Assembly: GCA_030704615.1 (NCBI GenBank)
Contig: CM060734.1
Coordinates: 39,556,001 to 39,620,000 of the forward strand
DNA from: Takakia lepidozioides
Taxonomy: Eukaryota; Plantae; Bryophyta
DNA length: 64,000 bases
Direction of reading: 5' to 3'
Shown piece by piece: positions 563-29,877 of this stretch (the first letter of the stretch is position 1; every line of letters starts with the position of its first letter). Below the pieces are notes generated by a model. It searched no databases. It saw only the letters and a program-made list of their open reading frames with translations, and was not told where the DNA came from. A program made the position numbers and the translations under genes.

Positions 563-2040
563 CTATTCCATCCTGTAGACGTCTTGGGGCTCTACCCAAC
601 TGAATGGTTTGTTCATGAAGTGGAACACTACTTGGGCTAATGTGAGCCTCTCAGACGGGACCGTGCTATTATATAACCTTCGTATGGCAGAATTCCAACA
701 TAGTCATGTGTAGTAATCCTTGAAAAGACTGGCATCATACGAATCGCCGCCATTTATTCTACCGCTATCTTTCCGACTGTAAAGGCCTCCAAGGTCATGT
801 CTCGGGTGTGCATTTGTGGTGTGTCATCCACCTAACTGTTTTCCTTGTTAAAAGCCATGGCAATTGCAGGTTCCACCCACCATCTACGTTTGAGAGTCCG
901 CGTCATTTTGTCTTTGTTTTCAAACTGGTACGACTAGGTTTTGCGTATCTCCGTTGAGGTGGCCAACCCCCAATCACACACCCCAATCTTAATCTCCTCG
1001 GTGTCATGTGGAAAATGCAACAAGATGTTGTTGGGGGACAAGTTGTTGTGTTTGACATGGTTCTTATGGACAACATCCATAATACTCACGAGTGCCCATA
1101 CAAGTTTACTGCGCTCTCTCCGAAAACGAACCAAGCGATCGGTTGCCTTTCGTTCCCGATTGTCTTTCAGTCTCTTTGTTGTCCCAATCACTTCCCCATT
1201 TTTTTGTCAAGGTTCAACATATCAGTTATTGTTCCCTCATTCTACCAGCGAGTATATCCCTCTACTTCACTTGCATTCACAGCAAAGTATGTAATGACTC
1301 CTGCATGCTGGAATCTCACTGCCAAAGACTCGTCGTTATATTGCCTCACCGCAACTTCTGGGTTTTTGGCTTTGGGTGTTTTCCCTATTAGTTCCCAACT
1401 ACACGGTATTCGTGAATCGCCAACAATCCTACACTTACGAACCTTGGCATATCCTCTTTCTTTGTAGGGGCCAAGTTGTTGGACCTGAGCACTTGTGTTT
1501 ACGTAAATAAGACTTATTGTACTTCCCCCGCTTGATGATGCCGCTTTCCAAGGGACTAACCTAGTCTGGTGATGTGTATTTGCGCTTATTGAATGCGCCC
1601 ACCACTCGACAAGTTGGTATAACTCGGTTTTCCAGCTAGGCAACCGACCTTCAGTTGTTCTATCCTTCCATGTCCTCATTACCTGCCTCAAATTCCACGT
1701 GACATCTTTTGCCCTACTCTCGAGCCAATGCAAGAATTTCGGCTTGTTCCTATCCTCCATCCGCTGATCTCCAGCCAAACCCTCTCTCATTCTCTTCTCC
1801 ATATATTTGCTGAAAAATACGAAACCCCTCGTGTCCATGCCGGACATAAGCACTTTGCAGCCTCATAATGTTTTTTTCTTTGAAATAATCAAATATAGTT
1901 CTTTTAACCCTGTCTAAAGCATTTGGTCCCAGATAATGTTGTTTGTTGACCTGGCTATCTCGCTCGTGGGCATGTTTTCTTTTCCTCCGACCCCCAGACG
2001 ACGACCCCGGCCCAGTATTTGTGTTTGCAGTCCCTGACAT
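563..2040 (-). pseudogene. Intronless protein kinase pseudogene (frameshifts and stops)
   Basis: Stitching minus-strand frames gives kinase subdomains in order: ERGYAKVRKC (Gly-loop), LIGKTPK (VAIK-like), HNNLSPNNILL (catalytic loop), CDWGLA (DFG-like), RWWVEPAIA (APE-like), EAFTVGKIA (IX), PSERLTLAQVVFHF (XI). ATG at 2040, stop at 563-565, internal stop at 934-936. Confidence 0.75.
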
Positions 2041-2904
2041 TATATAAACATTTGCCCACTGCAAGGGATGGGGGAAAAAAATATATAATGGATGTGTGTG
2101 GATGGTATCTTCATATTTTCTGCAAAAACGGGTCACATGAGATCTTAAAACGACAAATGGAACGGTGAATAGGGGCTGAACAGGTGTGGGATTGACCCAA
2201 TTAAGAATCGACAAAACTTCTCGCTCCCAAAACAAACACCTTTGCACACGTTGGCAGTGCCACGCAACGAAGTCCGAAGACTACAGGAAGCCAAGGAACC
2301 GCACTCACGGAGGAGCAAAAGTGATCATAAAGGGGAGGGAGATGTTTGTCCATGTTTATGGATGCGATTCTCTTAACTCTATTGGGACACATCGGACCCC
2401 CGAGCCACGGTCACCTATAGATTAAAAAATACAAATTTTTGTCCTATTTCTATCTTTCTATATTTACCAATCACTTCCAACAACTGGGACAAAAACTCAA
2501 GGATCATCAAGTATGTTACTGAAATGAGATAATTGTGATGTGAGTTAAGCGTACCTAAAAAATGGGGAAAAACTTGGATTTTTTTTAAAAATCTTTCGAG
2601 GTTTTTTTTAAAAAAAAATGGGAGGCTTATCTTTAACTATCATTCACTTACGTCCCTTCCTACCTCGTCATGTTTTGCAATTCTAATTTGGATTAATACT
2701 TCACGTGTAGTTAAATCATAATTATTGAACAATTATAATCATAAGTGAATTTTGGTAATTCAAAATATTCAATCCTCATTTCGAGTTACAGGCTAGCCTA
2801 TTACCAATCGATTTATCCATTGATGATGTGAAACCAATAATGAAATAAAAACATAATGTATGACGAGAAACCTGTAAATACTGATTCGAGGAATTTTCTG
2901 CACA

Positions 2905-2975
2905 TCGGCTGGTAGCTCAACTGCTAAGTGCACAATGTGTCGCCCTGGTGGTTCGGGGTTCAAACCTGCTGATTG
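2905..2975 (+). mobile_element. tRNA-derived SINE head / degenerate tRNA-like sequence
   Basis: Pol III A-box-like TAGCTCAACTG (2913-2923) and B-box GGTTCAAACC (2957-2966) at tRNA-like spacing; no complete cloverleaf. Confidence 0.5.
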
Positions 2976-3149
2976 TTCGATGAGCATGTTCGCACGTGAG
3001 ATTGTGCTCAATAACTGTAGAACAGTAGCTTATGATAAAACGAGAGTGAACCTCCTTGGATTAAAGTCAACTCTTGAGTATACTTTGGATATTCGACATG
3101 AAATTGGAGGAAATAGGATAGTAGTCTTGTCCTGTAACATAGACTAAGT

Positions 3150-3345
3150 ATGAGTCGGCTGAGGACTTCATCAGATATTGTAGTGTGGAAGGCCAGCTTG
3201 CTTGGTGCCTGCAGAATTCATGTCAATGTGGAGGTGACAGAACGTGCTGTAGTTGGCAACAGTGTGAGAAATGATGAAGGCCAGAGATGTCAAGAAGGAG
3301 CCAGGTCACACGCACATCGAAGTGCATACATTCATTGTGGTATTA
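3150..3345 (+). pseudogene. PLS-class PPR protein E/E+ domain fragment
   Basis: DIVVWKASLLGACRIHVNVEVTERA, then (frameshifted) MKARDVKKEPGHTHIEVHTF, match the E-domain consensus W.ALLGACRIH.N.E.AE.A and M..RGVKKEPG.SWIE...VH.F, with internal deletions. Confidence 0.75.
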
Positions 3346-3952
3346 CCAGGATTTTCCTTGGAGTAAGGGAAATGACAAAGCTCGCAATCGTATAAGGAAA
3401 GTCAAGCATTGTGGAGCTGGGAAGTTTCTCTCCCGTCCACACTTATAAATCTCTAGTTGAGTGACAGCAAGTGGGTTCAAACTGACAGTGGCTATTTCTC
3501 TAGACATAGCCACCATGGGTAATTTCCCCCTTTCCTCTTTCTCTTTCGTCTGTGGTTTTGTCTCTTTGTTTCTTGTCTCTTTGAGCTTTCAAACCCTTGT
3601 TGGAGGAAAAAAGTACCAATGTTCTCCAATTTAAGCTGAAGACTACATTAGTTGTGTGACCTCCTTATATGTGGCAAAGAGTACTCTGTCCTCATCAAGA
3701 GATGTCTCTTTAAACTTTGTAGGAGCTTTCAAATATGTTGTATTGATTCCAGTGGGAAGATTTCTATTTTTGCACATGCAGGTTTGTTTGTAGGCTGGAG
3801 TAGTAAGATTCTCATGGCACAGAAGAGTCCGAGCTAGGGCGTGGGATTCGTGAAGCAATGTCACAGGAGGGGTCAGACAGCTGGGTGGATGATACAATCA
3901 CACGTCATGTTATGAGCCTCCACGTAACGACAAAGGAGGAAGCTGCACGGTT

Positions 3953-5095
3953 GTGGCCAGTAGTGGAACAAAGGCGGGGAAAGGCCATCATCTGGTGCTG
4001 CCACTAGTGGAGCCACACCACCTGTCTTCTTATCCTGAATTGTGCTGGCGCTCTGATTGTGGGGATGTTGCCTCTGATCACAGTTTGTCTGCACTTATGC
4101 TCGATCTATTGGATAGGCTCCCCAACACTCCCCAGGGTGATTCCTGGGAATTGGTTACTTGTGCCAAATCTAGGGCTTCATGTGTAGTTTTTGGGGTGAA
4201 TCCCAGGATGGACGATGTGTCCTTTAAAACTACATGCTCTAGCTTAGGCTTGGATTTCATGGCCAATGGCTCCATCTCGAGACTTGATAACATGGGTACT
4301 TTGAAGGTTGCAATGCCCAAAAATGCTTCTAATAGAGTCTCACATCAACTCAATCTCAAAGAAGTTCGTGTATCTGAAGGATTTGGTACTTTGAACGGTT
4401 TACCAATCCTCAAAGTTTACACAAGACGTGCAAAATCTATACATGGGGTAATTGTCACTAAGCAGTCAGACGGACAACTTGTCCCTAAGTGTGCGGAGTC
4501 TGAACGTCATGTAACTGAAGGATTTGGTACTCTGAATGGTTTACCAATTCTCAAAGTTTACACAAGACGAGCAAAATCTACACACTGGGTAACTGTCCCC
4601 CCTTTGCAGAACGGTTGGCCATCCAAGAGCAATCTTAAGCTACCTAGACGACAAACAATTCACATGCAAAGGGCTGGCTTGCGGCTGGCCACTTTCAACT
4701 TCTCAGGGCTGACTAACCAAAAGAAACAACTCAAAGTGGGACAAGTTCTTCGGACTAATGATATTCATATCTGTGATGGGCAAGAAACTTGGGAAACGTC
4801 GGATAAACTGGTTGGAGATGTCATTGGTTCTAAATGGGCATGTAAGATGTGTACTCTCAAGGGAGCCTCTGCCAAACGCGGTAAAAAAGGGGTTAAATGC
4901 TTTGTCCGTGATTTCTTGTTTGACAATTCTGTTAATTGGTGGACCAATGAGATTAAACTCAAGATAGCTGAGAGACGAGTCATTTATAAAGAGTGCTGCA
5001 ATTTGAAAATCAACAAAAAATTGTGGGCGAGGTACTATCAGATCCGTAAAGATATTAATCTGCTTGTAAGGGCTCAGAAGAAATTATACTGGAGC
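3953..5095 (+). mobile_element. LINE 5' remnant: ORF1-like region, APE endonuclease N-terminus and EN-RT linker
   Basis: LRLATFNFSGL...DIHICDGQETW...GKKGVKCFVR matches EEP/APE endonuclease motifs; NWWTNEIKLKIAERR...WARYYQIRK...KKLYW resembles the LINE ORF2 linker. Confidence 0.65.
4364..4595 (+). repeat. Direct repeat (~141 bp period) encoding EGFGTLNGLPILKVYTRRAKS twice
   Basis: CTGAAGGATTTGGTACT...CAAAGTTTACACAAGACG...CAAAATCTA at ~4374 and ~4515; a weaker third copy at ~4295. Confidence 0.85.
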
Positions 5096-6060
5096 TTCGC
5101 TAACATAGCCAAAGCTAAGAAACGGTATGAACGGCAGGCGAATCGGAAGCGGAGGGAAGTTAAGTTTGAGGTAGGCACGGAGGTCTGGTTCACTACAACA
5201 TATCGCGGTATGACTGTATATATGACTATTCTGCAGTCATAAACGGTACATATGACTTCTATGACTGTAAGTCGTGCAAACCAAGTGAATACAATGAGTA
5301 CAAGATGGTACGGTCCGGATGACCACAGTCAGATAAACCAAGTGATATCTCTCACTGCAGTCATATATATCATACTGCAGTCGCCGCTCCGCGCCACGTG
5401 GCGATGCGCAATTGATTTTTTTTCTTCAAAAAATAATAAATAAATTAAAAAAAATATTAGACGCCATGTTGGACCGCGTTGTGCCACGTGGCAGCCCATC
5501 TAAGGTGTCGCGTGCTATCCCTAGCTCGTCTACTAACCCTAGGGTCATCTTATCCATTTGATTGTATTTAAAGGAGTTTGAACCTCCAACCTCTTTACTA
5601 TAAGAGTTATAGTTCACTACCTGCTAACCAATACACCCATTAGTTATTCATGTGATCATGTGGTGTTTTAATTGTATTATACACACCAAATTATAAAATC
5701 CCCAGTAGTCATCATGACTATGTAACCTCATCCATGTACACTGTAGTCATGGAAATGACTATAGTGGTGAGCTAAATCTGGTCAATTGTCGTTGACCAGC
5801 CTTCCGCCCATTTCGGAGCCATGTAGTCATACAGACGACTACGTAGATAGTCGTTTCTATGACTATAGTCGTATGAACGACTGCGGGAGGTCAATTTCAT
5901 ATAAAAACATGTTGCAGTCATGGTCAAAGTCAAGAAAACCATGACTACCACGGTTTGGCAGTCATAATTATCGCGATCTGTTGTAGTGGTTGAACATCAA
6001 GAATTTCCGACTACCTCCGGAAGTGAGTCCAAAGTGAGTTCGAAGTTCGTACCTCTATAA
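5096..6060 (+). mobile_element. Ty3/Gypsy integrase C-terminal fragment interrupted by a CACTA insertion
   Basis: AKKRYERQANRKRREVKFEVGTEVW; removing 5191-5991 restores ...VWLNIKNFRLPPEVSPK, typical of the post-integrase region. Confidence 0.7.
5191..5988. mobile_element. Non-autonomous CACTA (En/Spm) DNA transposon, 798 bp
   Basis: TIRs CACTACAACATATCGCG (5191) and CGCGATCTGTTGTAGTG (ends 5988), 16/17 match; 3-bp TSD GTT at 5188-5190 and 5989-5991; many subterminal ATGACT/AGTCAT motifs; GCCACGTGGC palindromes inside. Confidence 0.95.
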
Positions 6061-6399
6061 AGAGTACGATATGCGAGGAAGTTGAAAGAGAGTGTCCTGA
6101 CATCTTGGTCATGGGAAGCCATAGCACATTGGTCATGGCTTTGGCACATTGCAACGGAATTGCATACTCTATGCACTGGCAGCCATAGTGTTTAAACGGT
6201 AATCAATACAGCTTGGTGTCTATATATTTCTGGCCGGATATTCACAAACTGAAAAGTTCCCTAAGCATTGCTGTCAGAAATTCTACCAATGGTGGCATGA
6301 AGGCATTTGCATTCTTATTAACCGTGAGAAAGAAATATATTTTTTGGATTTACTATGAATTTTTTACGATCTGTCATAGGTATGCCTATAAGAGTTTCT

Positions 6400-8935
6400 A
6401 GAGTGGGTTCAAAATTCAAAAGTTATTGCGTCACTTGAAAGTATCAAATAAACATGTGATGGCATCTGGAAGCAGCCGCGCAACACAGAGAAACGAAATA
6501 TTCAGCATGATGCAACAGTTAGGAACACCAAGCTTATTCTTCATTTTAAATCCAGCATTTGTACATCATCCTCTGGTATCCCTGCTAAGTGGGAACGACA
6601 TCGATCTTGACATTTTTTTCGATGAAAACCTCTCGGACCACAATGAAAGACGTGCAATTGCCACTATGAATCCGAGATCTCAAGCTAAATTTGTACACAT
6701 CATTGTGAATGCAGTTTTCAAATACCTACTACGTGTCAGAGATACCGTCAAAACTTCCACAACAAATACGGGAGTACTTGGGAACATTAATGCATATTAC
6801 GGTTGTTACGAAACGGCGAAAAATGGTTCACTTCACATACACATTATTGTGGCTAGAAAATGCCCCAGATCCCAACGAACTCGTTCAAAAACTGAAAGAC
6901 GACGAAGAATTCAAATGGAAAATGTTGGCATATTTGGACAGCATCATAGTACGTGACTCGATCCAATTCAAATCCAAAATACCGGTTGACGACGACATTC
7001 CAACCACTACCATTGACCCTGACATCGAAGAAAACAATGTAAACACCGAAATCCATCCGTGCACTACCAGACCTCCCGATATTCACTCTAAAACATTTCA
7101 TGCCGACTTTGCGCGCGACGTCTCGAAACTACTAAATGTATACAATCGCCACGTGTGCAATCCCGCGTGTTACAAAACCAACAAAGATGTTTTAAAAAAA
7201 AATTGTAGATATGGATTTCCCGTTGTCTTGGTTGAAGAAACGCATTTCGACGACAAAACCGGGCTGCTACACATATAACGAACCGACATATGGTTGAACA
7301 ACGCAAATCCATGGATGTTAGTATTAGGAAGATGCAACCACGATTTGAAGTTCATCGGTACTTCAGGGAAAGACGCAAAGGCACTGATATATTACATCAC
7401 GGATTACATCACAAAATCTTCCGTCTACACATCACACATGTATTCGCTCTCGCAAATAGCCGTAAAAAAAATCCAAACGACTTATGACGATTTATATTCC
7501 GAACATTTAGTCGACAAGAGCCAGAAATTGTTGATTCGATGTTTGAACACGATTGGATCCAAACAAGAAATATCGGCAACAAGGGCAGTCAGTTACCTGA
7601 TGAAATATCCAGACCATTTGACAGACCACCACTTTGCATATCTGTCGGTGTATGGTATCCGTGAACAAGAACAATTTCGATCGAATAAAGATGGAAACAA
7701 CGATTTGAACAACACACTTGACGATAACGACCCCGAAAACACCTCTGAAACGTTCAAAGTCGAAAGATCCGAACAATCAACATCGACCCCTTATACAATG
7801 AGATGCCAGACGAAATGCACAATGACAATAACGACGATATATATGTGGACGACAATTCAGTGTCGCAACAACATACAGAAGACATAGTCACAAAAGGCCA
7901 GAAATTACAAATCGAATATCTCATGTGCAATACAAGCGAAAACCAATATGTGACCGAGGTTACCAACAAGCTCATTACGGATGCCAACGGGAAAATATCA
8001 CCACAAAACCATATCGCACCAAAAATAGAAATGATCCAAACTGCAAAAAAAAATTCAAATAGATATCAAATCAATAAATGGTTGAAAACATTACGCAAAT
8101 CCAAAAATCCGCCCACCGGCATTGACAACAACATGTACGAATTTGCAATTGCAACCCAGTCATCCAAAAATATTAACCTCCAACACAAAAATCCAGAATT
8201 GAGAGAAATTCCAAAAACCGAATCAATGGATATCACAGATGACGACAATTACGATGTAGATCCTGATATCGTGCAACATCAAATAGCTAAATATTTTGTG
8301 ATAAAAAAATACAAGTTCAACAAGGCACTCGAGGAGGCGGAGGTGCTCACTAGGTGGAGCCCCGCACACCGGGTTGCGGTTTCGTAAGAATCAACATTTG
8401 AACGTTTCATAGACCCACAAAATCACCATCTCGATGGAAGAAAATAAACGTTAATGTATGTGGGAGGTGCTGCTAGAACGGGAAAGACATAATTAATTAA
8501 AGCAATCCAAACGTACGTCATAAAAACCAAGAGACCCAAAATACTGAAAATCGGTGCCTACACAGCGAATGCCGCAATCCTCATAGGGGATCAACCATCC
8601 ACGCTCTATTGGGATTGAAAATCAGCCAGAGTGTCAACAAATTCGACACAAAAAGTTTCATAAACGAATGGTCCGGGACAGACTATTTGATTATAGACGA
8701 AGTATCTATGGTCGGATGCAACATGATCGCCGATATCCATTTGAAGTTACAAAAATTCAAATCGAACCTGTTACCATTCAGAGGACTCAACATAATGTCC
8801 ATGGGCGATTTCATGTAGGTTCCACCAGTCACTGACGCGCCTCTTTATTCAACGAACATACAACCTATATTCACATTCACAAAATACACAAAAAAAAAAA
8901 TTATAGGCAAGAGCCTATGGGAAAATTACATACGG
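6400..8935 (+). mobile_element. Helitron Rep/PIF1-helicase remnant (degenerate, truncated)
   Basis: RNEIFSMMQQLGTPSLFFILNP; HUH region YYGCYETAKNGSLHIH..LLWL; HVC...C...CRYGFP; CNHDLKFI; YITDYITK; helicase GGAARTGKT, YLIIDEVSMVG, GDFM*VPPV, GKSLWENYI. Multiple frameshifts and stops. Confidence 0.9.
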
Positions 8936-9430
8936 CCTTGAACCTCTTGACTCGTTGTAGGATCCGATCCCTCTCCTTGGCAGTCACACTAGCTTCCGTG
9001 TCTCCAGTGCGGAGGTAGTCCAACACAACCAAATCCTCATGTATATCTCTGGCACCACCTGGCTCATCACTAGCCTCAGGGTCCTCAGACACTTCGTCTA
9101 CAGTCATCCCTGTTGTAGGTCCAACCTGACCTCCCGATGCCAAGATACACAAAAAGGCAGATGCATGTCATCCCGGCACCATCTCCTCGTCTGTCTCACC
9201 ATGCCACCGAGCTCCAGTGTCATCTTGCTGGCTCGTGCATGGATTGCGACTCAATCCATCCGCATCCCTATTGACCAAACCCGTGCACAACCTGAACATG
9301 TCTCTCATGCTCCTCCACCGTAGCACGAGAGGCAAAGCAATTCCTGCAAGCCTCAGGAACCGCCGTATACGTCGTCTCTCTCCTCTAGTGACAATAGGTC
9401 CAATGTCAGGCTCCCAATTGCCCTTCGTAA
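8936..9430 (-). pseudogene. Collapsed RT/RNase H remnants and integrase N-terminal region
   Basis: WEPDIGP...EACRNCFA (pre-RT) joined to TVEEHERHV (post-YxDD of RT), joined to VVH/GLVNRDADGLSRNP (RNase H end), then DIHEDLVVLDYLRTG...KERDRILQRVKRF. Confidence 0.7.
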
Positions 9431-9769
9431 CTACAACCTTAAGTCCAGCAAACTTAGAGGTAGAGGACACGTCACGTGGTTGCTATGCCGCAACCTCTTG
9501 AGCAATACTCCATGCATGCTCAGTCAATGACAAGGCCTCATCTTGCCCCATCATCTCATCCTTGAGGACCTCCTCAACCCGAGAAGAATCCCCAACCTCA
9601 TCCATCATAGCCGCCTTGGCTGCCAACTCCCTCTGAACCTCGAGCACCTCCCATGTGTGCCATGGATGTCTAACCCCGTGGTCCTCACATGCTCGCCCCC
9701 ACTCACTGCCTGTACCGTCTTGGTAGGCAGAGAGACCATGGAGGGAAGTGTACTCCACACTCTGCGTTG

Positions 9770-10730
9770 CTCAGCCATAGCCAAGCTGATAATCCAGGTC
9801 AAGCGATTGAGATCCATTGCTTGCCCCAACACTTGACGACGTGATGCCTCAGAAAGAGACGACACCGCCGTGGTACCAGTGGTAAAACATATTGCCCGCT
9901 CACGTTTGTTAGCATTAGGCTCCACTAACTGCTGCAACTGAGCATCCTACAGGAGGCCAGGTCCACTATCCCGGAAAAGCATGCGATCCTGGGAAGCTGA
10001 GCAGTGTAGGTAATGCTGCTCGTGGTTGACCCACCTTGTTGACCACTGCCAAAGGCGAACGGTCATCGTGTCTCACACGCTGAGACTGCCTCCTTGTGTC
10101 CAGAATGCTATCCACTAGATGTACTGGCCGCTGCACCTCATCAAATGCACGCTTGAGCAGTGCGGGTGGCATCAAGTTAGTCCACCATAGCCGTGGACGA
10201 TGAGCCCGTGACCCCACTGTAGCTGCATCTAGCAACACTGCTGACCCAAGCCACAACCGGACTTGATGCACACTGGCCATCACCCTGGCCCGAGAATCGC
10301 CCATCAGTGGCACATTCTCCAAGATGTATGCTGGAGATACAGCTTGTTGAAGCTGCAAGTGGCGCAAAACCCGCACCATCTCCCAAAACAGACCCGACCT
10401 CGAGTCTCGCAATCCATTGTCATGCCCGGCTGATGAATGCCCTTGGCAGGGCCAACCTGCCACTACCAGATCAATGGATCTAACCCGCTCCAAATCTTGC
10501 GCCCCCAGCAACGAAATGTCTGCTGGCAAGACCTGCTGATATCCACGAATTGCAGACACCAACAACAACTCAGGGTACCGCTGCACCAACTGAGCAACAT
10601 GACGAAGTGAAATGCATCGTGCAGTCTCATCCCTCTCCACATACAGGTAACGCCGAACTCATACACCTGCCTGTAACACAACAGCCAATCCGGTGCTGAT
10701 CCCGCCAAACAAGTCCAGAAGACAAATGCC
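9770..10730 (-). pseudogene. DNMT3-like C5 cytosine DNA methyltransferase domain (retrotransposon-encoded)
   Basis: Motif I LDLFGGISTG, II YVERD, IV AGWPCQGHS (catalytic Cys codon 10446-10448), VI YILENV, VIII DAATVGSRAHRPRLWWTNL, IX KRERAICF, X RRQVLGQAMD. In frame with the protease apart from nonsense codons at 10848 and 10659; one frameshift near 9970 and a stop at 9947-9949. Confidence 0.92.
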
Positions 10731-11129
10731 TTCATCCGGACACTGCCACACAATAGGTGTGGTGTCCAATGGAGACAACTGAGGTGGTCCTGGTGCAATC
10801 CCCGCACTCTCCTCCTCTCCTGACGGTACAAAAGCCTCCACCCAGGCTTATTGCACCCGTCGATCAGCATCCCGCTGCAAATCCTTGCTCGTGTCCCACA
10901 ATGGAGTTTGAGCAATTATGGTAGGCAACTCTGCCATACCATACATGTCCTCCTGCTCTCCCAGAGGTGGCACATCCTCTGAATGAGCGTTGCCCTCAAG
11001 CAACTCTCCAGGCCAATTCACTGCCGTTGTGAATGCTACTAGTGTCGGCATCTTGTCTCGTTGGGCAACCGCAACTCCTCCTATGATCGTCACAGGGAGC
11101 TGCACACGCCGGCCCTCCCCTAATTGCCA

Positions 11130-11480
11130 TCCAGGCCTATAGGAAGCTGACTCCTCCCAAAAATCTAGAGTGAAGCCCATGGGGTACAACACTGCCCCAC
11201 CAACCAGGATATCGTACGAGACCGCGTCTGTCACAATGGCCTTGGTTCGCATTAGTGAGCCATCTGTAGGGTGATCCGGCCGTAGTCTGATAGCCAACTC
11301 ACGCCGTGTCATGCCCCGAGCCTGCTCCGATCCTCCCAGAGACGTCTGTATCTGGAAAGGACAAGGCTCCATATCTGCCTCCGTGAGGCCCAAGCCTGCA
11401 ATAGCAGCTCTACCCAGCATCAATGGCTGAGCTCCCGAGTCCAACAAGACCTGCAGTGGCCGGTACCTCTTGCCTGCCGG
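11130..11480 (-). pseudogene. Retropepsin aspartic protease
   Basis: QVLLDSGAQPLMLG catalytic motif and YDILVG motif in ORF 10848-11663. Confidence 0.85.
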
Positions 11481-12359
11481 TCCACTCAAACAAAAAATGC
11501 CATCCTGGTTGTCTAACATGACAACTCCAGGTGTAACCATGGCGCGCTCAATGGCTGGCCTAGATGGCAGCTCCATCAACCAGGCAGCTGCAGCTTGCCA
11601 TGGCGCCGCCGTGGCAGTCTTGACCCTCAAATCCGAGGATCCCTTTGGCACTACACCTCCCACTATCTCCGCAGAAGATGAAGTAATTCCCCACTCTCAC
11701 AGAGTGTAGCTGCCAGCCTGAACACCTCAGCTGGTCTTACCCCCGGCGTCGCAATCATGGTAGCCGAGAACAATGGAGCCTCGCACACAGATGTGGCCGC
11801 TCCTAGCAGCACACTAGCTACCGTAGCCTTGGCAATACTAGGTAGTGGTGCTACTCGTGTAGCTCTCCCCAATGGCATAGTAACCTCCGCCTCGGTAATA
11901 GTCGGGCGAGAACTAGGTGCCATGGATGACGTCGACACTGTCTCCGCCAATGTGAACGACTGAGGAAGCTTAGCCTGACGGCTTGCCTCCCCACGCTGTG
12001 GATCCAACTCCACCTCTGCACCTCGTGGCTCAGGAACTCGTGCTGCTCCTCGAGTCACGGCTGCAGCAGACTCCACCTGCACTAGTGGTAGTGTTGCTCC
12101 ACACATGAATCCCATGCCTCCCATATCTCCTCCCTCAGGAGCAGGAGATGGACCATCCGGCCTTAGAGCCGGTACCACCTGAGCTGTAGCCATGGCAGCG
12201 AGCCTGTACTCTAGCTGCTGAAGCCGGTTGGCCATGCCTTGGTCAACACCCTGACCTCCGCGTCCTTGGCCTGCACCTCGTGGCTGGCCACCTCGTCCTC
12301 TCTGGGCTGCTCCACCTCGCCCCCGGCCACCATTGTTCCCTTGGAACTGGCTTGGGCGC

Positions 12360-13430
12360 AACTCAGGATGCAAACCAAAACAGGGCCTCTCCATGCCCGT
12401 GTTTGCCACAATGCCCACACTGTAACTGTGCAGGCTGTGCATGTGCCGGGTACTTTGCCTCCCTCTGGGCAATCCTTCTTGACATGGGGTCCTCCACATG
12501 TCCAGCACACCACATCCGCCCGTTGTTGGCCAGCAAATGAAGGGAGAGACCCCTGCATCTGAGGTCCTCTCTGCCCTTCCCTGAGCTTCACCTGAGCCCC
12601 CTTGTTGCCTTGAGCATGTTGAGGTAGTGGTTGGCTAGGAGCACCACTACCCCGTGGTGTCTCCTTAGCAAATCCCACCATGATCACTCGTTCCTCCACC
12701 ATGTTGAGCTCTATCCGCTCTGCGAGCAAAAACACATTTGCAAGGTGGGTTGGGCCGCTTGTAGGAGAGTTGCATCCCGCACCCTTCTCCTCAGCTCCTT
12801 GTCCAATATCCCATACCAGAATTGGACTGCCTGAGCTTCCGTAACCCCTTGGGTTACATTTATCAAGCGCCTCATGCGAGTGAAAGCCTCCCTCAAGCTC
12901 TCGGTCGGCTTCCGTTGGAACTCTTGTAAGCTCCGCAACTTTTCTGTCCTCACCCCTTGGTAGTTCCATCTCAATTCTTCGAAGAACTCCACAATAGGGT
13001 TGAAGGCAGGCACGGGTACTAGTGCTGGTGCGGTAGTGGCTTGGGTGGACGTCGTAGCTACTGTACCACCAGTCCCACTAGTCCCTCTACTACTTGCTGA
13101 AGCTGCCGGTGCAGCGGCAGGTGTAGCCACTGCCCTCGTGGCTCTAGTGCCCCTAGTGATGGAGACATAGTCGGGTGACCAGTACATCCTCCACTCCTCG
13201 ATCTCAACCTCATGCCCCCGCCTGAACTCATGGTAATCATCCATAGGCGGCCCTCAGGTGCTGAAACAGCCCTTCTATGCCATGAAAGGTGTAAATAGTT
13301 GTGGATTGCGCATTTGCTGCAAATCACACCAACTATCAAACTCTTGGATAAAATCATCCAACTTGATGGTGCCCACCGCCCCAGAGTACCTTCGTGGCCC
13401 CTTGGTAGTTCCATACATCTCCTCCATTGT
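12360..13430 (-). pseudogene. Retrotransposon Gag with two zinc knuckles
   Basis: KLDDFIQEFDSWC; FFEELRWNY...LQEFQRKPTESLREAFTRM (retrotrans_gag-like); CWTCGGPHVKKDC and CGHCGKHGHGEA(fs)C knuckles. Confidence 0.8.
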
Positions 13431-14399
13431 GTCCCACAACAATGGCAAAGAAACAACTTTTACCGCCGGTATGAGTCCTCCTGATTCACAATCCGAATCA
13501 GAACCTTCCGTAGAAGACACAGGAGGTGAAGGTGGCCTAAACCGCACACCTCGTCTCGTGTACCCACTAGTATCGTTAGTGCTCGAACCGGCACTGTCCC
13601 CAGCAACTAGTGGCACCTCCGTGTTGACACTCAACCGGTCATGAACATGTCCCTAACCCCCTCTCCACAAGGTAACCGGATAGAGAACCTATTGCGGCTT
13701 ATGGTTTGGAATACTAAGTTCCTAACATAGCCTACACCTGTACTTGCATCCACCGCAAGCACTCCTATGGTTGGCTGGTCATCACCTCCAACCTCACCAC
13801 AGGAGAAACAATGATGGTCTGGCTGGTCATCACCCCAGCCTTGAGGGCGGATTCCCTTCTGGCTTGACCCTCCATATTCTCGACCGTCCTCATCAACTCC
13901 TTAGATAGTCACCATCGACAGCATGCTCTAGGACTGGCCGGTGATCAAATCCGGACCAATCACCTATAAAAACAAGCGCCCACACAAAACTAGCATGGCG
14001 CACAGTCAAGCATGCAGGTATGGAGGGGATCCAAACACAAGAAATCAGAACGACAACTCCCCCACACCAAAAACAACTCCACGGTGTTGCTCCTGCAATG
14101 ACACCCCAGCCCAAACCCGGACTGACTCTTGCCTCCACCTACAGAAAGGTCTTGGCCTAATGAGAAGGTGAAACTACGAGGAAGAGAAGCTAAAGCAATG
14201 CCTAACCCCAGCATGCCCTCATCCCAACACTCTTCCTCTCCTCTCTTCCCTCACTTGCATGACCATGGGAATATCATGAAGATACTCCTCAAACCGCCCT
14301 CCACGAGCTTCATAATTCGGCCTTCAAGACCACATACCAGTCCTTAGGCAGTCCACCAGTGCCTCCACGAGTCAGTACAGGCCGTCCACAGGTCAACAC

Positions 14400-15612
14400 G
14401 GGCCACCACAGACCAGCACAGGCCCACACAGCTCACAGGCCACAACCTGTCACAGCCCTACACAGGTCACAGGGTCACAGCCCCACAGGCCGCAGCCTAT
14501 CACAGCCCCAAAGGCCACCTGTCACAGCCCATCACAACCCCAAAGGCCACAGGCACAGCCTGTCACAGCCGTACAAAGGTCACAAGGTCACAACCCCAAG
14601 GCCACAGCCTATCACAGCCCCTCACAGCCCCTCACAGCTCGCCACAGCCTGTCACAGCCCATCACAGCCCCACAGGCCACAAGGCACAGCCTGTCACAAC
14701 CCCTTATAGCCCGTCACAGCCCACAGGCCACAGGGCACAGCCTGTCACAGCCCCTTATAGCCCGTCACAGCCCCACATGCCACAGGGCACAGCCCATCAC
14801 AGCTTGTCACAGCTCGCCACAGCCTGTCACAGCCTGTCACATCCCGTCACAGCCCCACAGGCCACAGGGCACACTGTCACAGCCCCTCATAGCCCGTCAC
14901 AACCCACAGGCCACAGGGCACAGCCTGTCAAGCCTCACAGCCCGTCACAGCCCATAGGTCACTGAACACAGCCTGTCACAGCCCTCATAGCCCGTCACAG
15001 CTCGCCACAGCCTGTCACAGCCCATCACAGCCCCACAGGGCACAGGGCACAGCCTGTCACAGCCCCTTATAGCCCGTCAAGCCCCACAGGCCACGGGGCA
15101 CAGCCTGTCAAGCCCGTCACAGCCCGTCACAGCCCCACAGGCCACTGGGCACAGCCTATCACAGCCCGCCACAACCTGTCACAGCCCCTCACAGCCCCAA
15201 AGGCCTCAGCACGGCCTGACACAGCCCTCACAGCCCCTCACAGACCCTCATAGCCCCAAGGCCACGGGCACAGCCTGTCACAGCCTCTCACAGCCCGTCA
15301 CAGCCCCACAGGCCAGGGGCGCAGCCTGTCACAGCCCGTCACAGCCCCGAAGGCCACTGGCGCAGCCCGTCACAGCCCTCACAGCCCGTCACAGCCCCAA
15401 AAGGCCACCGGCACAGCCCCTCACAGCCCATCACAGCCCCCATGGCCACCGGCGTAGCCCGTCACATGCCCTCACAACCCGTCACAGCCCGAAGGCACCG
15501 GCACAGGCCCTCACAGGCCCTCACAGCCCGTGACAGCCCCGAAGGCCACCGGCACAGCCCCTCACAACCCGTCACAGCCCCAAGGCCACAGGGACAGCCC
15601 GTCACAGCCCAT
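14400..15612. repeat. Minisatellite array (core CC(C/T)GTCACAG, ~11 bp units with GGCCACAGGGCACAG spacers) in the element's 5' non-coding region
   Basis: Dozens of CCCGTCACAG / CCTGTCACAG / CCCATCACAG / CCCCTCACAG variants with higher-order blocks. Confidence 0.95.
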
Positions 15613-18818: not shown

Positions 18819-21800
18819 TCTCTCAAGCACACTCTTGTATAATCTCTATTATATCAGACATGCTACTAGAGCCAAGTTACTTAGATCTTTTAGAGTGTAA
18901 AAGAATGAGAGAGGAAAAACAGAAATGACTCAATTCAGAGCAACTGACCTTAGGAATGTAACCAAATTTGATGGTATATATTTTTCATGTATAGAAACAT
19001 CGAGTGAGGTTAATTATGAAAGCCGAAAACTTTTCATTGTGGTGGATGGAACGTTGGTAAGACCATTACTCCTCCACCAACTCTTGGAGGAACAGTTGCA
19101 CATACACCAGCCACAAGTGCTGGCAGTAAAGTGAGTGGGACGAGAAAGATGCTCTCACTCTCACACTAATAACAAATTGCCTTGAAAACAATCAAGTGTC
19201 TCATGTAAGCTATCTTGATACGTCAAAAGATATTTGGGATGAGTTGACCAAGTTGTTTGAATCACAGGATGCGTGATAAACTTGCCACACTAAAAATGAG
19301 GGAGAACGAGAGCATGACACAACATGTTTATGCTTTTCGATCATTACTGGAACAATTGTCGGCGGCTGGATCACCTGTCAATGATGAAGATAGTGTGATA
19401 TCTCTAATGAGGAGCATGCCTATAAGCTACATAAGCTTTTTGGTGGCTCTCAGAGGGCATCCCAACATTGCAGACCCTCATCACATAATTGCTGCAAGAA
19501 GAGACTCTTATGAAGAGTCTTGGTTCTTCGGCTGATTCAACATCAACACTGGTTAGGAAGTACACCTGCGAACCACAAGAACAGATATGGTTCATACACT
19601 TCGAAAGAAGGTAATGGACCAACTTCTCAAGCAGTGAAAGTGGGGAAAAAGAAGATGCGATGCTTCTTTTGCAAAAGCTTGGTCATATCCAAAAATATTG
19701 TCGTAAGCGACTTGCTACTGAAGCGGAAAAATAAGGGAATACAACCAGTTCTTCATAATTTTTGTATGTTGCTACTCTCATATCTAAAATAGAAACTGAC
19801 ACTTCATGGTTGGTTGATACTGGTGCAACTGAGCACATGGCATTTGATTCCAAATGCTTTGTCACATATACAAAATATTCCGCATAACAGTTTGTGTATC
19901 TCGGTGACAATTCAGCCCACGAAATAATGGGTAAAGGGAACGGCTCAATTGTTCTACTTAATGGACAAATTCGAGAAGTACCTGATGTCCTTCACGTCCC
20001 AGTCCTGAGAAAAAAGTAAAACAGTTTGTTGCATCTAGAGGAGAACTTACAATTAAAGGAGGGAGTTGCTTATTGTCCAAAAATGGGCATTTACTTGCAA
20101 CCTGCAAGATAGAAAGTGACTTGTACAAGCTAGGGATCTCGAAAATGCCAAGCGAGGTTCATGCTAATGTTGTAAGCTCAGACTCTGCCGCAAATATATG
20201 ACGCCTTTGAAACCCTAGCAGCTCACACATTCCTATTGTGGGTTCGGTCCTCTTAGCGGCTAGGTCTACCCCAGGCCTGGTTGTAGTAGAAGATATTGTT
20301 GTAGGGGGAGAACATGAAGACTCTTCTTTAAAACGTCCAATACGACTATTAGTCGACCCTGCTGGTCTCCAACAGAACCCAGTGTCTCTCCCATCTGGGA
20401 GATAAAACAAAGAAAACCCCTTCACGGCTCATTGAAAGCATCATGGAAGGGAAGACTGTTCCATCTAATTTATAGGGCCCACCCCCGAAAGGGGGCAGTA
20501 GCCACAAGGCGAAGTGGCTCTTAGTTATGCTGGCTTTGGCCGGAGTCTCCTCTCTCTCTGTTCCATCTAAAAAAAAGCCTAAAGCACTTCTAACCCGATC
20601 TTATTGATTAGATCCAGTCACATTGTTAGAAGCTCTAGCATGAGCTGGAGCCAATGATTGAATGAATGCAATAGACATAGTTGAAGTCATTGAAAAAGAA
20701 TCAAAATTGGAAATTGACAGCCTTGCCTCACAATCGAAAGGCAATTGGTTGCAAGTGGGTATTTAAAACCAAGCTCAAATCCGATGGTTCAGTCGCCAAG
20801 TACAACAAGATTAGTCGCAAAAGGCTATACTCAATAAGAGGGAGTTGACTATCAAGAAACTTTTTCTTTAGTCATGAAACTCACTTCTATAAGAGTACTA
20901 TTAGCCTTTGCAGTATATCATGACCTTGATATTCAACAAATAGACATCAAAACAGCCTTTCTGAATGGCCAACTTGATGAGGAAATTTATAGGGAGGTTC
21001 CCGAAGGACTTCCTCCAGTACAAAGAAGTCCAAGATTAGTGTGCAAGTTGAAAAAGACATTATGTGGTCTAAAGAGTCACCACGACAGTGGTATCAACGA
21101 CTAGACTCCTTTCTGGTCTCGATTGGCCTTCACAATAGTGAATCAGACTCGAATGTTTACACTAAGTCTGAAGGAAGGGGTTTAATAATCATTGTTGTCT
21201 ATGTTGATGACTCAATACTGCTAAGTAATAATGCTGATGTGATGGAAAACACAAAGAAACTTCTTTCAACAGAGTTTGAAATGTCAGACTTAGGGTCTCT
21301 TCATTTTTGTTTGGGAATGGAGATCCTTCATTACAAAGAACTTGGGGTCTTGACAATCAATCAACAAAAATATGTTGAGGAAGTATTGCACAAATACAAA
21401 ATGGACTTGTGTAATCCTGCTATTACACCAATGGAACCCGAGCTAAAATTGAGCAAAGGTGATTCACCGCAAACTGCAGAAGAAAAGGAAAAAAATGGTG
21501 AACATACCTTACCAAAGTGCTGTTGGCAACCTAATGCATGCAATGGTCAACACTCGATTTGCATTTGCTGTAAGTTCTATAGCTCAGTATTATCAAACCC
21601 TGGAGAAAAGCATTGGCTCCCTGTCATAAGAATTCTAAGATATTTGAAGGGAACAAGTGAGAAAGGACTTGTCTTTCGACGCTCAAGTTAGCCACTGGTC
21701 TTGCACGGTTATTCCGATGCAGATTGGGCAGGAGATGTGGATACATGAAGGTCTACATCGGGCATCTATCTTCTTGCTAATGGGGTCATCAGTTGGGCAA

Positions 21801-26814: not shown

Positions 26815-29800
26815 TCATGGCCGAGCCAGATTGGGTAACTCAGTAGAATTGGGCAGAGGCGTAGACGAAGACTTTCTTGCTGCTCGATTCCATCTTATAG
26901 CAACCATGAGAGCATCCCCTTGTGGACCAAGGCCCCTTCGTCCCACCAGCTTCACCCTAAATTTCTGGCACAAATAGTAAAACCTACCCTGGTCTCCTCC
27001 TTTTACTTCCCTCAACTCGAATGCTTGTTGCCGGGTTATGGTGGTGTACAGATGCAAGCGCTGATCCACTGTGGCGCTTCCAACATTCTTCTTAGCTGTT
27101 GGTCCATACACCAGCCTCACCAGAGCTAATGAAAGTGGATCGTTAGTCTGATGGTCAAAAATAATGGAAAAGCTCCCAAACTCAAGGTCAGGCTCCTTGA
27201 AGAGATCTGCTAATGTGGCTGCGTATGATTGCACATCTTTGGGAATGGCTCGCTCTGCTTTAGGCGCCACTATTCTAGCTGCTGTAGCTGCTGCTATGTT
27301 GCTAGCCTCTCGTAGGCCACTTAGAAATGCACCATGCATGCTTGCTGGATACCGGCGACTGGTGGCCTCACCAGCAAAGAAGAGGTGGCCATCTCCAACA
27401 CTCTCCGCTAATATATCATAATCATCCCCAGATGCACCTACTGCCACATTCGAGTAAGAGCCATAACACAGGTAATCACTGCCCCACCGTGTACACACTG
27501 TCTGGACTGGATTTGGCACTTGAATCCCTCTAGGCTCATATATGCCTACAAACCCCAACAGATCCCCCCAGAATATGAAACTGACTTGAAAATTCAACAT
27601 GGCCTTCAAGTCTCACTTCAAATGCAAACATAAACTAAGAAACAGGATTAAAGGTAAAGGACACGCAAGTGTAAGTTCGCCAGCAAAGACTGAGGACATT
27701 CCATTAGTACCCAAGGAAGAGCCAAGCGTTCACGGTGCTGCTATGCAGAAAGATGATTAAGAGCACCAAAAATGATGTACATTTCTATACCCCTTGCATG
27801 AACAAGAAGGGTAATACAAGTTTCCTTACAACATGAAGCTCACAACATTCCGAGCAGATAATTCCAAAATAATAATCGCAATTCAACATTGTTGGTAGGT
27901 ACCTCTGAGAATGCTCATGACACGAGTCACAGCTTCCAGGGGAGGCTTGCTTTCAAACTCAATGGCTGCCTCTCCAGCCACCAGGGCTAGTAGCAGAGGC
28001 CCCCCGGAAACAGCAGCATAGCTGTAGAATAGAAAATACTCGCCTCGTTTGCTGGGATGCTCTGCAAGATGCCCAAAGGTGTCGAGTTCAGGGCCCCAGA
28101 AGACTTCCTGGAAGAGCATTACCACCTTGTTCAACAAACCAAACCCAAGCCTATCAATAGCATCCAGCTTGCGTTGTGGTAGCTCCGGTTCAAACTTAAC
28201 CGTCCGCTTCTTCAATACCCCGAGTGGCACCGTACAGAGTGCCACATCACCTTCAAACACCTGCTCTCCTGCTGTCACTTGCACACTTCCGCCTCCGTAC
28301 CTTATGGTCTGTACAGTCTTGCCATAGAAAATAGGTACATCCTCCGCCAAGGCACCAATAAGTTGCACATTGCCCCCGGGAAGAAAGCAGTGATCACCCC
28401 CCATTTCATAGGGGTCATCCTGGTCCCAAAACGCCAGTGATAAATTAGTCAGCAACCCTGCATTTGCATACTCTAAATTGGCCAAATGCCAATCATACAA
28501 CTGCCTCTCTTGAGGTGTCCCTCCTACCCCGTGACCTTGCCGTAACTCCTCCATTGCCGTGCCTAATGAAATGTCATTAGCAACCTGATCCATGCCTTCT
28601 CGCAACTTGCTAGCCTTGTCCAGCAATTTGTTAAATTGTGACTCCACCTTGGTATCCACATCATCTCTCACAGATTGCCCGTCAGGCTCATAAAGTGGGC
28701 ACTTTTCGCGGATCTTGTGGAGTGGTAAGCCCAACTGTCTTGCTAGCACCCCCAGAGGATTTCCATGAATCCCAGTTATCACACTCCCCCCTAGATCAGC
28801 AGCAGCTGTAAGGTTCTCCCCCTCCATCTTCTTGGTGTACACCCTACCCCCCGGCCGTTGCCTTCCTTCCACCACAACCACTTTGTGGCCAAATGCTAAC
28901 AGCTGCCGGGCAGCAGCCAAGCCTGCTAGCCCTGCACCTATAATGATCACCACTGCCTTGTCAGGTTCAGCCGGTATTGCAGACTTGATAGCAGGGGCAA
29001 CCCCAAAGTTAATGTACCCATGCGCAAGAAGGAATTTGTAGGCCGCTGCAACCAGGCTCTTGTACTGGCTTCGGATGGTCTCCATCACTGTCTCCTGATC
29101 CAACCATGCATTCACATTCTCTCTCCACCTGGCTAAAATATGATTGCGCACCACAATATAGTTTGCTTCCTCCACACCACCCACTGTGGAGACCACACCT
29201 GCCTCCATCTCTTCCTCCATCAGCGACTCCCTTGGAAATCCTATAGATGCGGCAATCATGGCCTCCACATTCACCTCTTTCTCCTCACTTGCCGGCTTCC
29301 TCTTGCGGCCCTTGGCTGGTGAAGGCCCTAATTGTTGCTCAATCATTGCATCCAAGGCTGTTTCATCATAGGTTGCACGTACCTTCTGCCGCACTGCTCG
29401 TATACCTCTGCCTCCTCCTCCTAGTTCTATCACCTCCTCTATGGGGTCCAAGCTCTCCCCACGTCTTCTTTTCCTCTTCTCCTCCATAGGTATGCCCTCT
29501 TGTCCACCGGAAGCACTAGGAAGGCCCCCCCCAGGTTGCTCAGCCACCGTCATGCTTCCATTGTGCTTGATAGCTCCTTGTGTTGTGAAGTTCGGGCTCA
29601 AAGGCGCCCTACCTACATCACCCTCTACACTGGTGCCATTGCTCTCAATCTGTAAGCTCCGTTCATCTCCTGTCCTCTCTTTCCAGCTTGCTGCTAGCCC
29701 TAACCCAGGGCCTTCTCCAGTCAAAAACCCTAAATCTGCAATAGGAGCAAATTGGGTCACATCCCTTGTCAACCCCTCCACCAGTCCATAATTTGACAGA

Positions 29801-29877
29801 TCGAGTTCTATATCCTGTCCCATTGTGTGTGGTAGGGAGGAACCCTCTTCGTTCACCCTTGCTCTTTCTTCCTCCAT
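26815..29877 (-). CDS. FLD: LSD1-family lysine-specific histone demethylase, FLOWERING LOCUS D-like (SWIRM + FAD amine oxidase); exons 29877-27903 and 27545-26815
   Basis: SWIRM (YIVVRNHILARWREN...HGYINFG), GAGLAG FAD motif, RPGGRV, FAGEATSRRYPASMHGAFLSGLREA, and an FLD-type C-terminus EPDLEFGSF...RQQAFELREVKGGD...KLVGRRGLG; GT-AG intron keeps frame. Start codon uncertain. Confidence 0.9.

Follow-up and report, generated by a model that had tools for sequence, protein, structure and literature searches.

The closest described counterpart of the element treated here is KnitGypsy-Dnmt3 from the alga Klebsormidium nitens, a Gypsy retrotransposon which contains a Dnmt3 domain and DIRS-like repeats in the arrangement A-coding-B-A-B (de Mendoza et al. 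2018, PMC5890265). Since 2018 it has been asked what DNA methyltransferases (DNMTs) borne by retrotransposons do; for the Gypsy version the sole description was that of an alga, with a domain that showed no activity in yeast. A related element was found in 64,000 nucleotides of Takakia lepidozioides DNA (GenBank assembly GCA_030704615.1, contig CM060734.1, forward-strand positions 39,556,001 to 39,620,000; this whole stretch is called the window, and positions refer to it unless another locus is named). On the minus strand, at 8937–13427, this early-diverging moss carries a dead, internally deleted Gypsy copy with Gag, protease (PR) and a methyltransferase of DNMT3 type; no protein can be made from the copy. 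The copy can be assigned, with near certainty, to a bryophyte Gypsy family of the order Gag-PR-DNMT3-UAG-RT-RH-INT-PHD (RT, reverse transcriptase; RH, RNase H; INT, integrase). Our preferred reading, to which a probability of roughly 0.6 is given, is that the UAG is a leaky stop, that the DNMT is packaged at the level of Gag and that it likely methylates the element's own cDNA in the particle. The Gypsy-Dnmt3 kind as such is already known from an alga; new is the bryophyte clade with a conserved UAG between DNMT and RT.

Relatives were taken from the best 80 of 144 metagenome loci (L numbers) and from 51 longer and 72 similar-length proteins matching the DNMT region (P numbers). The DNMT precedes RT in 41 of the 80 loci, 19 of which reach the integrase and 10 the PHD finger; it lies between RNase H and integrase in 32, and seven loci are too short. 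The position between protease and RT, which had been proposed in the initial annotation of the window, is thus seen in other family copies. The undecayed plan can be read in L020, where a 1369-codon Gag-PR-DNMT frame, one stop and 1047 codons of RT-RH-INT-PHD follow each other in the same frame. Full-length matches to the window DNMT show about 65–73% identity, with 70–73% for the closest Marchantia and Calypogeia-cluster copies; by species, identity is up to 71% in Marchantia polymorpha (whole region), 72% in Calypogeia fissa and 66% in Riccia sorocarpa (over 39%), and Sphagnum is also represented. More distant matches are those of Closterium, Klebsormidium (KFL_009030040, 44%), Haematococcus, Chromochloris and Hariotina, the algal members being only about 40% identical. 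Hornworts, ferns, lycophytes, seed plants, Physcomitrium and Ceratodon gave no named match among the 51 and 72 proteins, which does not amount to absence, since gene sets omit most transposons.

A stop codon at one homologous place was found in 29 of the 33 loci that contain DNMT as well as RT when the RT frame was translated, and also in L034 in the unshifted frame (30 of 33); it is absent from L041, L047 and L050, which belong to a distant family. The 29 loci represent 25 distinct contexts, in which the six bases after the stop are CAACCC (18), CAGTTA (2), CAACCT, CAACCA, CAACTA, CAATCA and TAGCCA (one each). Nineteen of the 25 come from one Sphagnum-type family, with TAG or TAA followed by CAA CCC or CCT; the others read TAG CAG TTA (twice), TAG CAA CCA, TAG CAA CTA, TAG CAA TCA and TAG TAG CCA. 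The motif CAR-YYA follows the stop exactly in four of six families and with one mismatch in two, against a background of 0.0023 per position; the window has TAG CAA CCA. The variants exchange the encoded residue (Q-P, Q-L, Q-S) but not the motif; between families, synonymous sites are saturated or exceed 1.4. Among 432 contigs of the Takakia read run X1 on 9440–9545, no variant of ≥3% occurred at the nine bases of the window signal, and five nearby bases differ. The stop at 9483–9485, which had been missed in the initial annotation, is conserved across the clade and is not a product of decay.

The protein records agree with this boundary. At least five Marchantia gene models of 1278–1281 aa contain the protease and all tested DNMT motifs, have no RT motif and end 97 residues past motif X; Sphagnum and Calypogeia proteins likewise end 99 residues past it. 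The tested DNMT motifs without an RT motif are also present in two Calypogeia-cluster proteins (1319 aa) and in several others of 1280–1775 aa. In 2 of 18 such proteins the ENV pattern was missed; where motif X could be read, the protein ends 97–188 residues after it. All stop-bearing or ORF-ending rows fall into one clade (100/98; IQ-TREE, 43 rows), with the rows known to be free of the stop outside. A distant, decayed PR-DNMT-RT family without the stop (L041, L047, L050, L038) is present in the same metagenome contig set; stop-bearing and stop-free lineages may co-occur in one host.

By motif order, profile and modelled fold the family DNMT is of DNMT3 type. A 13-row family profile run against 57 solved sequences placed DNMT3A/B/C first (up to 84 bits), followed by DRM (45–53), HhaI/HaeIII (32–39) and DNMT2 (25–32). 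A predicted model of the Marchantia domain (mean confidence, pLDDT, 95.9) matched DNMT3B best (Z 29.3, root mean square deviation 2.7 over 280 residues), then DNMT3A (Z 28.1), M.MpeI (25.4) and DNMT2 (Z 20–22), and the Foldseek rows shown for it are all DNMT3. The alignment of DRM2 covers no more than 127 residues of the model, and the motifs run from I to X, without the DRM-type rearrangement (VI–X before I–V); the initial assignment to DNMT3 rather than DRM is supported. All 71 rows have retained the catalytic Cys, 70 the Glu of motif VI, and 65 and 69, respectively, the two Arg of motif VIII.

These data also bear on the possibility that the window copy captured a retrocopy of a host DNMT3 or DRM gene once, or that the DNA is algal or a contaminant, for which we see next to no chance. 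The fold is common to host DNMT3, which is the sole point in favour of a capture. The DNMT occupies the same position in many copies and species, and a single capture is contradicted by this family-wide architecture; the domain is a part of the Gypsy polyprotein, as had been annotated, and no intron needs to be invoked. Host plant DNMT3 is marked by a C-terminal DUF3444 (PMC6453930); none was detected in the 28 and 21 proteins scanned, and the window DNMT contains no intron. DRM2 reaches only 45–53 bits, compared with 84 for DNMT3A, and a moss-like host gene lies in the window (see below). No host DNMT3 genes were retrieved by homology searches with the family DNMT. Of the three conditions named in the initial annotation as speaking against it, none was seen to hold in what the analysis covered. 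A phage source of the DNMT was considered and rejected: 624 phage records match, all at <60%, and the ten listed at 23–31% (tblastn). Likewise rejected was a viral source, since the 12 viral loci match only 46–140 query residues.

UAG followed by CAR-YYA is the consensus readthrough signal of plant viruses of the tobacco mosaic virus (TMV) type, with 11–32% readthrough in a plant reporter (PMC2754532, PMC5397192), and retroelements need roughly 20 Gag to 1 Pol (PMC2194720). Since the in-frame stop is situated behind the DNMT and in a CAR-YYA context, the DNMT would be made at the level of Gag, and RT and integrase by readthrough; from this comparison, readthrough of the conserved UAG seems probable. 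One RNA would thus yield mostly Gag-PR-DNMT, and the leaky UAG would occasionally add RT-RH-INT-PHD; readthrough of a few to tens of percent, as judged from the TMV-type signal, would give the full polyprotein and set the ratio of Gag to RT. The methyltransferase would enter the particle with every Gag, in many copies, would be freed there by the protease and could methylate the cDNA as it is made. Whether the cDNA is the main substrate of the DNMT we would put at an even chance. A possible benefit of premethylation would be that the cDNA escapes sensing by the host, or that new copies become established without disturbance.

Several observations weigh against this reading. The isolated Klebsormidium domain gave no methylation of yeast DNA, which is described as inconclusive in the same paper (PMC5890265). 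For Tca2 of Candida, an in-frame stop of gag turned out not to act as a simple readthrough signal (PMC2194720). The commonest context in our sample, that of the Sphagnum type (19 of 25), has CAA CCC or CCT and is one base off the consensus; this family also has, for the most part, an ATG three codons past the stop, so that re-initiation is possible as well. The contexts were read from metagenome loci and the window, Marchantia being represented in the analysis by proteins. In L027 the frame changes from Gag to protease, and in L006 a stop separates protease from DNMT. Moreover, stop-free relatives retain the DNMT (Klebsormidium, Closterium, P0136, P0143–P0147, and the 32 of 80 loci with the DNMT between RNase H and integrase); dosage at the Gag level is therefore not required in general. 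Finally, the CpG depletion of the element (observed/expected ratio 0.54) is no different from that of the window (0.51) or of a Copia remnant (0.39), and CHG ratios likewise do not separate the element from other sequence.

Some of these points would fit an alternative in which the family is the same, the stop is the plain end of a first open reading frame (ORF), and RT-RH-INT-PHD is obtained from a spliced or separately initiated message, by Ogre-like splicing, an internal promoter or re-initiation. Ogre transcripts are known as spliced, according to the titles of cited work; the downstream ATG of the Sphagnum-type family and the Tca2 precedent point the same way, and there are plant Gypsy groups whose first ORF encodes GAG-PROT (PMC6317226). 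Against this stand the single stop without spacer, the frame shared by DNMT and RT although the length of the linker differs between families, and the absence of the ATG from the window, L006, L020, L022 and L027. Marchantia models which join DNMT to RT (P0125, P0126, P0130) do so at three different places, which looks like an artefact of prediction, and the CAR-YYA pattern has no role in splicing. A contig of read run X12, possibly an RNA run, spans the stop uninterrupted, which was not counted against splicing. We consider this explanation unlikely. Stems were obtained in five of five sequences when 110 nt behind the stop were folded, without shuffled controls, and no structure was shared; RNA structure was not used as an argument.

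A second alternative accepts the readthrough and lets the DNMT act elsewhere: on host or element chromatin after nuclear entry, on RNA, or as a nucleic-acid-binding part of the particle. The inactivity of the Klebsormidium domain on yeast DNA and the lack of special CpG loss in the element would be in accord with it, as would the different positions of the DNMT in related clades. The conserved Cys, Glu and Arg speak against a purely structural role, and the fold is nearest to DNMT3, which acts on DNA (Z 29.3), not to DNMT2 (Z 20–22); furthermore, Symbiodinium retro-Dnmt3 domains methylate CG de novo (PMC5890265). This second possibility appears somewhat weaker still than that of a separate message.

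For the history of the domain, a DNMT tree was calculated with FastTree from the 135 rows that were left when 315 domains had been thinned; it has a midpoint root and no host or bacterial outgroup. The two element orders correspond to the two halves of this tree; the exception is a Haematococcus gene model without RT, automatically labelled as having the DNMT before RT, which falls into the other half. Distances of RT and DNMT agree (cophenetic rho 0.60, p 0.001, 50 rows; 0.75 in 13 rows with the DNMT before RT). The split of the tree by order, together with this agreement, suggests that the DNMT has travelled with the lineage for a long time. Ratios of nonsynonymous to synonymous change (dN/dS) were 0.05–0.24 in those between-family pairs for which dS could be computed, indicating purifying selection; two close Sphagnum-type copies gave 0.7, as expected of decay after insertion. 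An identity of ~70% between moss and liverwort DNMTs is high, and one Sphagnum family groups with Marchantia and not with the window (95/76–79, weak), as might result from a recent horizontal transfer from an alga into bryophytes or a recent spread between bryophytes. Synonymous sites between the window and the Sphagnum-type families are saturated, however (third-position identity 47–48% in same-residue codons), and the algal members are too distant in identity, as given above; recent transfer is accordingly judged improbable. An older transfer of the family into or between bryophytes may have taken place.

Several further observations were made on the wider family. The second architecture, RT-RH-DNMT-INT-PHD, is mostly one long open frame (L042–L080, P0140, P0160, P0278 and others) and occurs also in the chlorophytes Haematococcus and Hariotina; no description of the chlorophyte order RT-RH-DNMT-INT was found in the literature searched. 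The DNMT profile is matched by 541 clusters at 50% identity, at an E value of 1e-30. In a Marchantia cluster, 4 of the 15 members listed (P0414, P0415, P0416, P0419) are on the V (male) sex chromosome. P0228, a 50% relative, is filed under a cyanobacterial metagenome-assembled genome and is probably mis-binned plant or algal DNA.

The ends of the element were read in relatives, as the 3' end of the window copy is deleted. L028 (its positions 1679–10805) has the arrangement A (339 bp, TG..CA), coding part, purine tract, B (112 bp), A, B, with a 4-bp duplication on either side, and L008 shows A-coding-B-A up to the end of its contig. The copies in L017, L021 and L044 have A...B as their ends, likewise with 4-bp duplications, as if recombination between two B repeats had removed the second A. 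Thus, 4-bp target duplications are present in all four insertions with both ends readable (L028, L017, L021, L044; in L017 allowing five unaligned end bases). Inspection by eye showed no tRNA primer site behind repeat A. In L020, a relative with the RT that the window copy has lost, the second frame matched Ty3 Gag-Pol best among 21 PDB entries (E 4e-98). The Ty3/Gypsy order Gag-PR-RT-RH-INT is found in the family loci, and in the window Gag-PR is followed by remnants in the same order.

The integrase ends in a PHD finger and not in a chromodomain (L020, its positions 7999–8226; a separate copy in the window, see Table 1). The nearest solved domains are those of CHD4, PHF12, PHF21A, KDM5, ATXR5, KAT6A and UHRF1. 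PHD fingers of CHD4, PHF12, PHF21A, KDM5 and others are readers of unmethylated H3 tails. By this likeness, the finger may bind unmethylated H3 tails and steer insertion away from active promoters; the integrase would insert the cDNA with the 4-bp duplication seen in the relatives, and the new copy would arrive premethylated in quiet chromatin. A wider proposal, offered tentatively and with less confidence than the reading above, would be a green-plant-wide Gypsy lineage which has possessed a DNMT3 since before the split of chlorophytes and streptophytes, and whose main bryophyte clade moved the control of gag and pol to a leaky UAG behind the DNMT; hundreds of DNMTs per particle would methylate the cDNA before integration, and the PHD finger would aim the integrase at chromatin unmethylated at H3K4. 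If this were true, a retroelement with its own kit of DNMT3 and reader would write heritable 5-methylcytosine in land-plant genomes independently of RNA-directed DNA methylation and host DNMT3.

The features of the window are compiled in Table 1.

Table 1. Features of the Takakia window; positions are those of the window.
Feature	Position	Strand	Basis or remark
5' untranslated part of element	13428–14400	-	outer boundary not found; depth at family level up to 14400
Gag, with capsid-like region and two Cys knuckles (12469–12507, 12393–12419)	12393–13427	-	broken by stops and frameshifts
Gag-protease spacer	11684–12235	-	43% to Mp4g09160 residues 398–558
Aspartic protease, active-site motif LLDSGAQ at 11427–11447	11082–11579	-	motif; collinearity with Mp4g09160
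DNMT3-type C5 cytosine methyltransferase domain	9809–10739	-	motifs I–X in canonical order; PF00145 E 8.6e-14
DNMT motif I	10701–10721	-	
DNMT motif IV (PCQ)	10440–10460	-	
DNMT motif VI (ENV)	10311–10325	-	
DNMT motif VIII	10173–10229	-	
DNMT motif IX	9884–9901	-	other frame, past frameshift
DNMT motif X	9809–9841	-	other frame, past frameshift
Conserved in-frame TAG, then CAA CCA	9477–9485	-	closes Gag-PR-DNMT frame; stop at 9483–9485
Linker before RT, in frame with stop	9351–9449	-	55% to L006 second-frame residues 6–38
RT remnant, about 15 codons, between two deletions	9286–9339	-	8 of 12 residues as in L006 RT 238–249
RNase H end and linker before integrase	8937–9281	-	50% to L006 second-frame residues 480–614, E 2e-39
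Decayed Helitron (Rep and truncated Pif1 helicase), context only	6402–8936	+	Helitron_like_N E 1.7e-18, PIF1 E 0.0025
Separate decayed integrase C-terminus and PHD finger, same superfamily	44640–45095	+	about 70% DNA identity to INT-PHD end of L013, L014, L017, L028
Copia RT remnant	20993–21688		in the window
LSD1-type histone demethylase gene (SWIRM and amine oxidase)	26818–29967	-	host gene
DNAJC8 gene, intronless, context	38489–39226	-	host gene; 88% to Sphagnum

The initial annotation had placed the protease and the C5 methyltransferase in one frame, separated by point stops only. This is correct for LLDSGAQ and for motifs I, IV, VI and VIII, which are interrupted by the stops at 10848–10850 (between protease and DNMT) and 10659–10661 (within the DNMT), but not for motifs IX and X, which lie beyond a frameshift near 9975 and an additional stop at 9947–9949. 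The profile search suggested at that time recovered DNA_methylase from Pfam (PF00145) with the E value given in Table 1. The upstream Gag with two zinc knuckles was likewise recognised: the region is 63% identical to Marchantia Mp4g09160 over residues 1–227 (tblastn) and the knuckles are collinear, although the Gag part has several frameshifts. Pfam profiles scored under their curated cut-offs in the window copy (Retrotrans_gag on Gag, E 0.002; Asp_protease_2 on the protease, E 0.028); in the relatives P0133 and L020 the protease profile reached E 5e-5 to 2e-4. The RT, RNase H and integrase remnants described earlier come down to the linker before RT, some 15 codons of RT, the final part of RNase H and a linker leading to the integrase; almost all of RT, RNase H and integrase has been deleted, and the window copy has neither the active site of RT nor the core of the integrase.

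The element is cut at 8937, where it abuts the decayed Helitron, and the Helitron helicase is severed at exactly the same point. The Helitron (6402–8936) has a CpG observed/expected ratio of 1.24, compared with 0.51 for the window. Inside the Helitron remnant, a 60-bp piece (8321–8380) is covered at high repeat depth, with loose ends to its left and right; neither this piece nor the 5' part of the element (13428–14400) had a match among 92 relative loci. Directly beyond the 5' side of the element is a tandem array (14373–15610) of ~10-bp units with the consensus CACAGCCCGT in 97 copies and higher-order periods of 41 and 51 bp.

For an impression of abundance in Takakia, read contigs of several runs were placed on 8300–14400, where summed depth is not to be equated with copy number. 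Run X1 gave 56,599 contigs in identity bands from <90% to >99%, with a summed depth of 0.4–1.3 million over the element versus 1,400–1,800 over the Helitron flank (8504–8911); in run X5, 270–1,360 contrasted with about 5. This shows that the family is highly repeated in the host, and that the DNMT part is covered like Gag and protease. Contigs depart from the window at 9283, 9326–9330 and 8937, and their letters, read by eye, are those of RNase H, the YxDD region of RT and the continuation towards the integrase. Loose contig ends at 8937 occur in four of four runs, and one contig of run X12 contains about 1.3 kb of extra sequence between 9283 and 9330. According to the contigs, other copies differ from the window copy at its frameshifts and at the 9947 stop.

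The host assignment was examined with the DNAJC8 gene of the window. In a tree of 31 rows selected among its matches, this gene falls inside the moss clade (99/97); its place outside both Sphagnum and the Physcomitrium/Ceratodon group has weak support (87/57). This single gene tree supports an early-diverging moss as host, and the contig is that of a land plant, as had been presumed, and not of an alga or a contaminant. The LSD1-type gene at 26818–29967 we take to be FLD-like.

Marchantia polymorpha is a transformable model with methylation mutants and at least five annotated Gag-PR-DNMT models with intact catalytic motifs; the question of function should therefore be directly testable. The conserved stop is a clue to it, since the enzyme would be present at the dosage of the capsid protein and not of the polymerase. 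Gag-PR-DNMT reading frames also supply bryophyte annotations with DNMT3-like genes of hidden origin, and they could confound studies of de novo methylation in bryophytes.

Regarding novelty, the view that retroelement-borne DNMTs in land plants had not been characterised has to be divided: the Gypsy-Dnmt3 kind is already published from an alga, while no paper was found on land-plant DNMT retrotransposons or on the conserved stop, subscription papers being largely outside the search. Neither "Marchantia" nor "Sphagnum" occurs in the main-text passages or the three supplementary files of PMC5890265 that were searched. PMC12344493 and a 2026 preprint write "streptophytes" for Gypsy-DNMT3, and their supplementary trees could include Marchantia copies.

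Among known enzymes, the catalytic domain of human DNMT3A/3B is the best match of the family DNMT by sequence profile and by structure, although identity is about 22%, the family has no PWWP or ADD domain, and the target-recognition loop differs, for which reason the methylated context is not predictable. SymbioDIRS-Dnmt3 and the EpiLTRs are also retrotransposons with cytosine methyltransferases, the EpiLTRs in addition with a chromatin reader (PMC5890265; bioRxiv 10.64898/2026.05.21.726589), but they belong to other hosts and element classes, and the DNMTs of EpiLTRs are related to DNMT4, are situated at the end of pol and are accompanied by DAM and a chromodomain. TMV-type (type I) readthrough resembles the arrangement here in its single in-frame UAG with CAR-YYA between an abundant structural product and a polymerase. 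In MuLV (murine leukaemia virus) and Tca2 the stop follows gag, and in SIRE1 it precedes env, whereas here it follows the protease and a cargo enzyme, with the DNMT on the Gag side. In Ogre, a spacer is reportedly removed by splicing; in contrast, the bryophyte clade has one stop and no spacer. Ogre and other two-ORF plant Gypsy elements (GAG-PROT/RT-RH-INT) have in common with the clade that the polyprotein is split into a protease side and an RT side (PMC6317226); neither "methyltransferase" nor "PHD" appears in the main text of that survey.

The comparison with KnitGypsy-Dnmt3 is the closest one. Shared are an intronless, non-rearranged Dnmt3-type domain in a Gypsy polyprotein under purifying selection, the order PR-DNMT-RT-RH-INT in KFL_009030040, and the A-coding-B-A-B repeats, which are complete in the relative L028. 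The two lie on the same side of the DNMT tree and in the same RT clade (0.845), but the branch that joins them in IQ-TREE is weak (64/0 at the midpoint root, with no true outgroup). The family described here differs in its moss host with liverwort and Sphagnum kin, in a DNMT that is only about 44% identical, and in the PHD finger at the end of the integrase, none being mentioned in the text and supplements of the KnitGypsy paper that were searched. Furthermore, the DNMT of KnitGypsy-Dnmt3 is stated to share an ORF with RT (peer-review file), whereas in the bryophyte clade the two are in the same frame but split by UAG-CAR-YYA. Because of this conserved stop between DNMT and RT, the bryophyte clade represents a variant of the KnitGypsy-Dnmt3 kind rather than a plain member of it.

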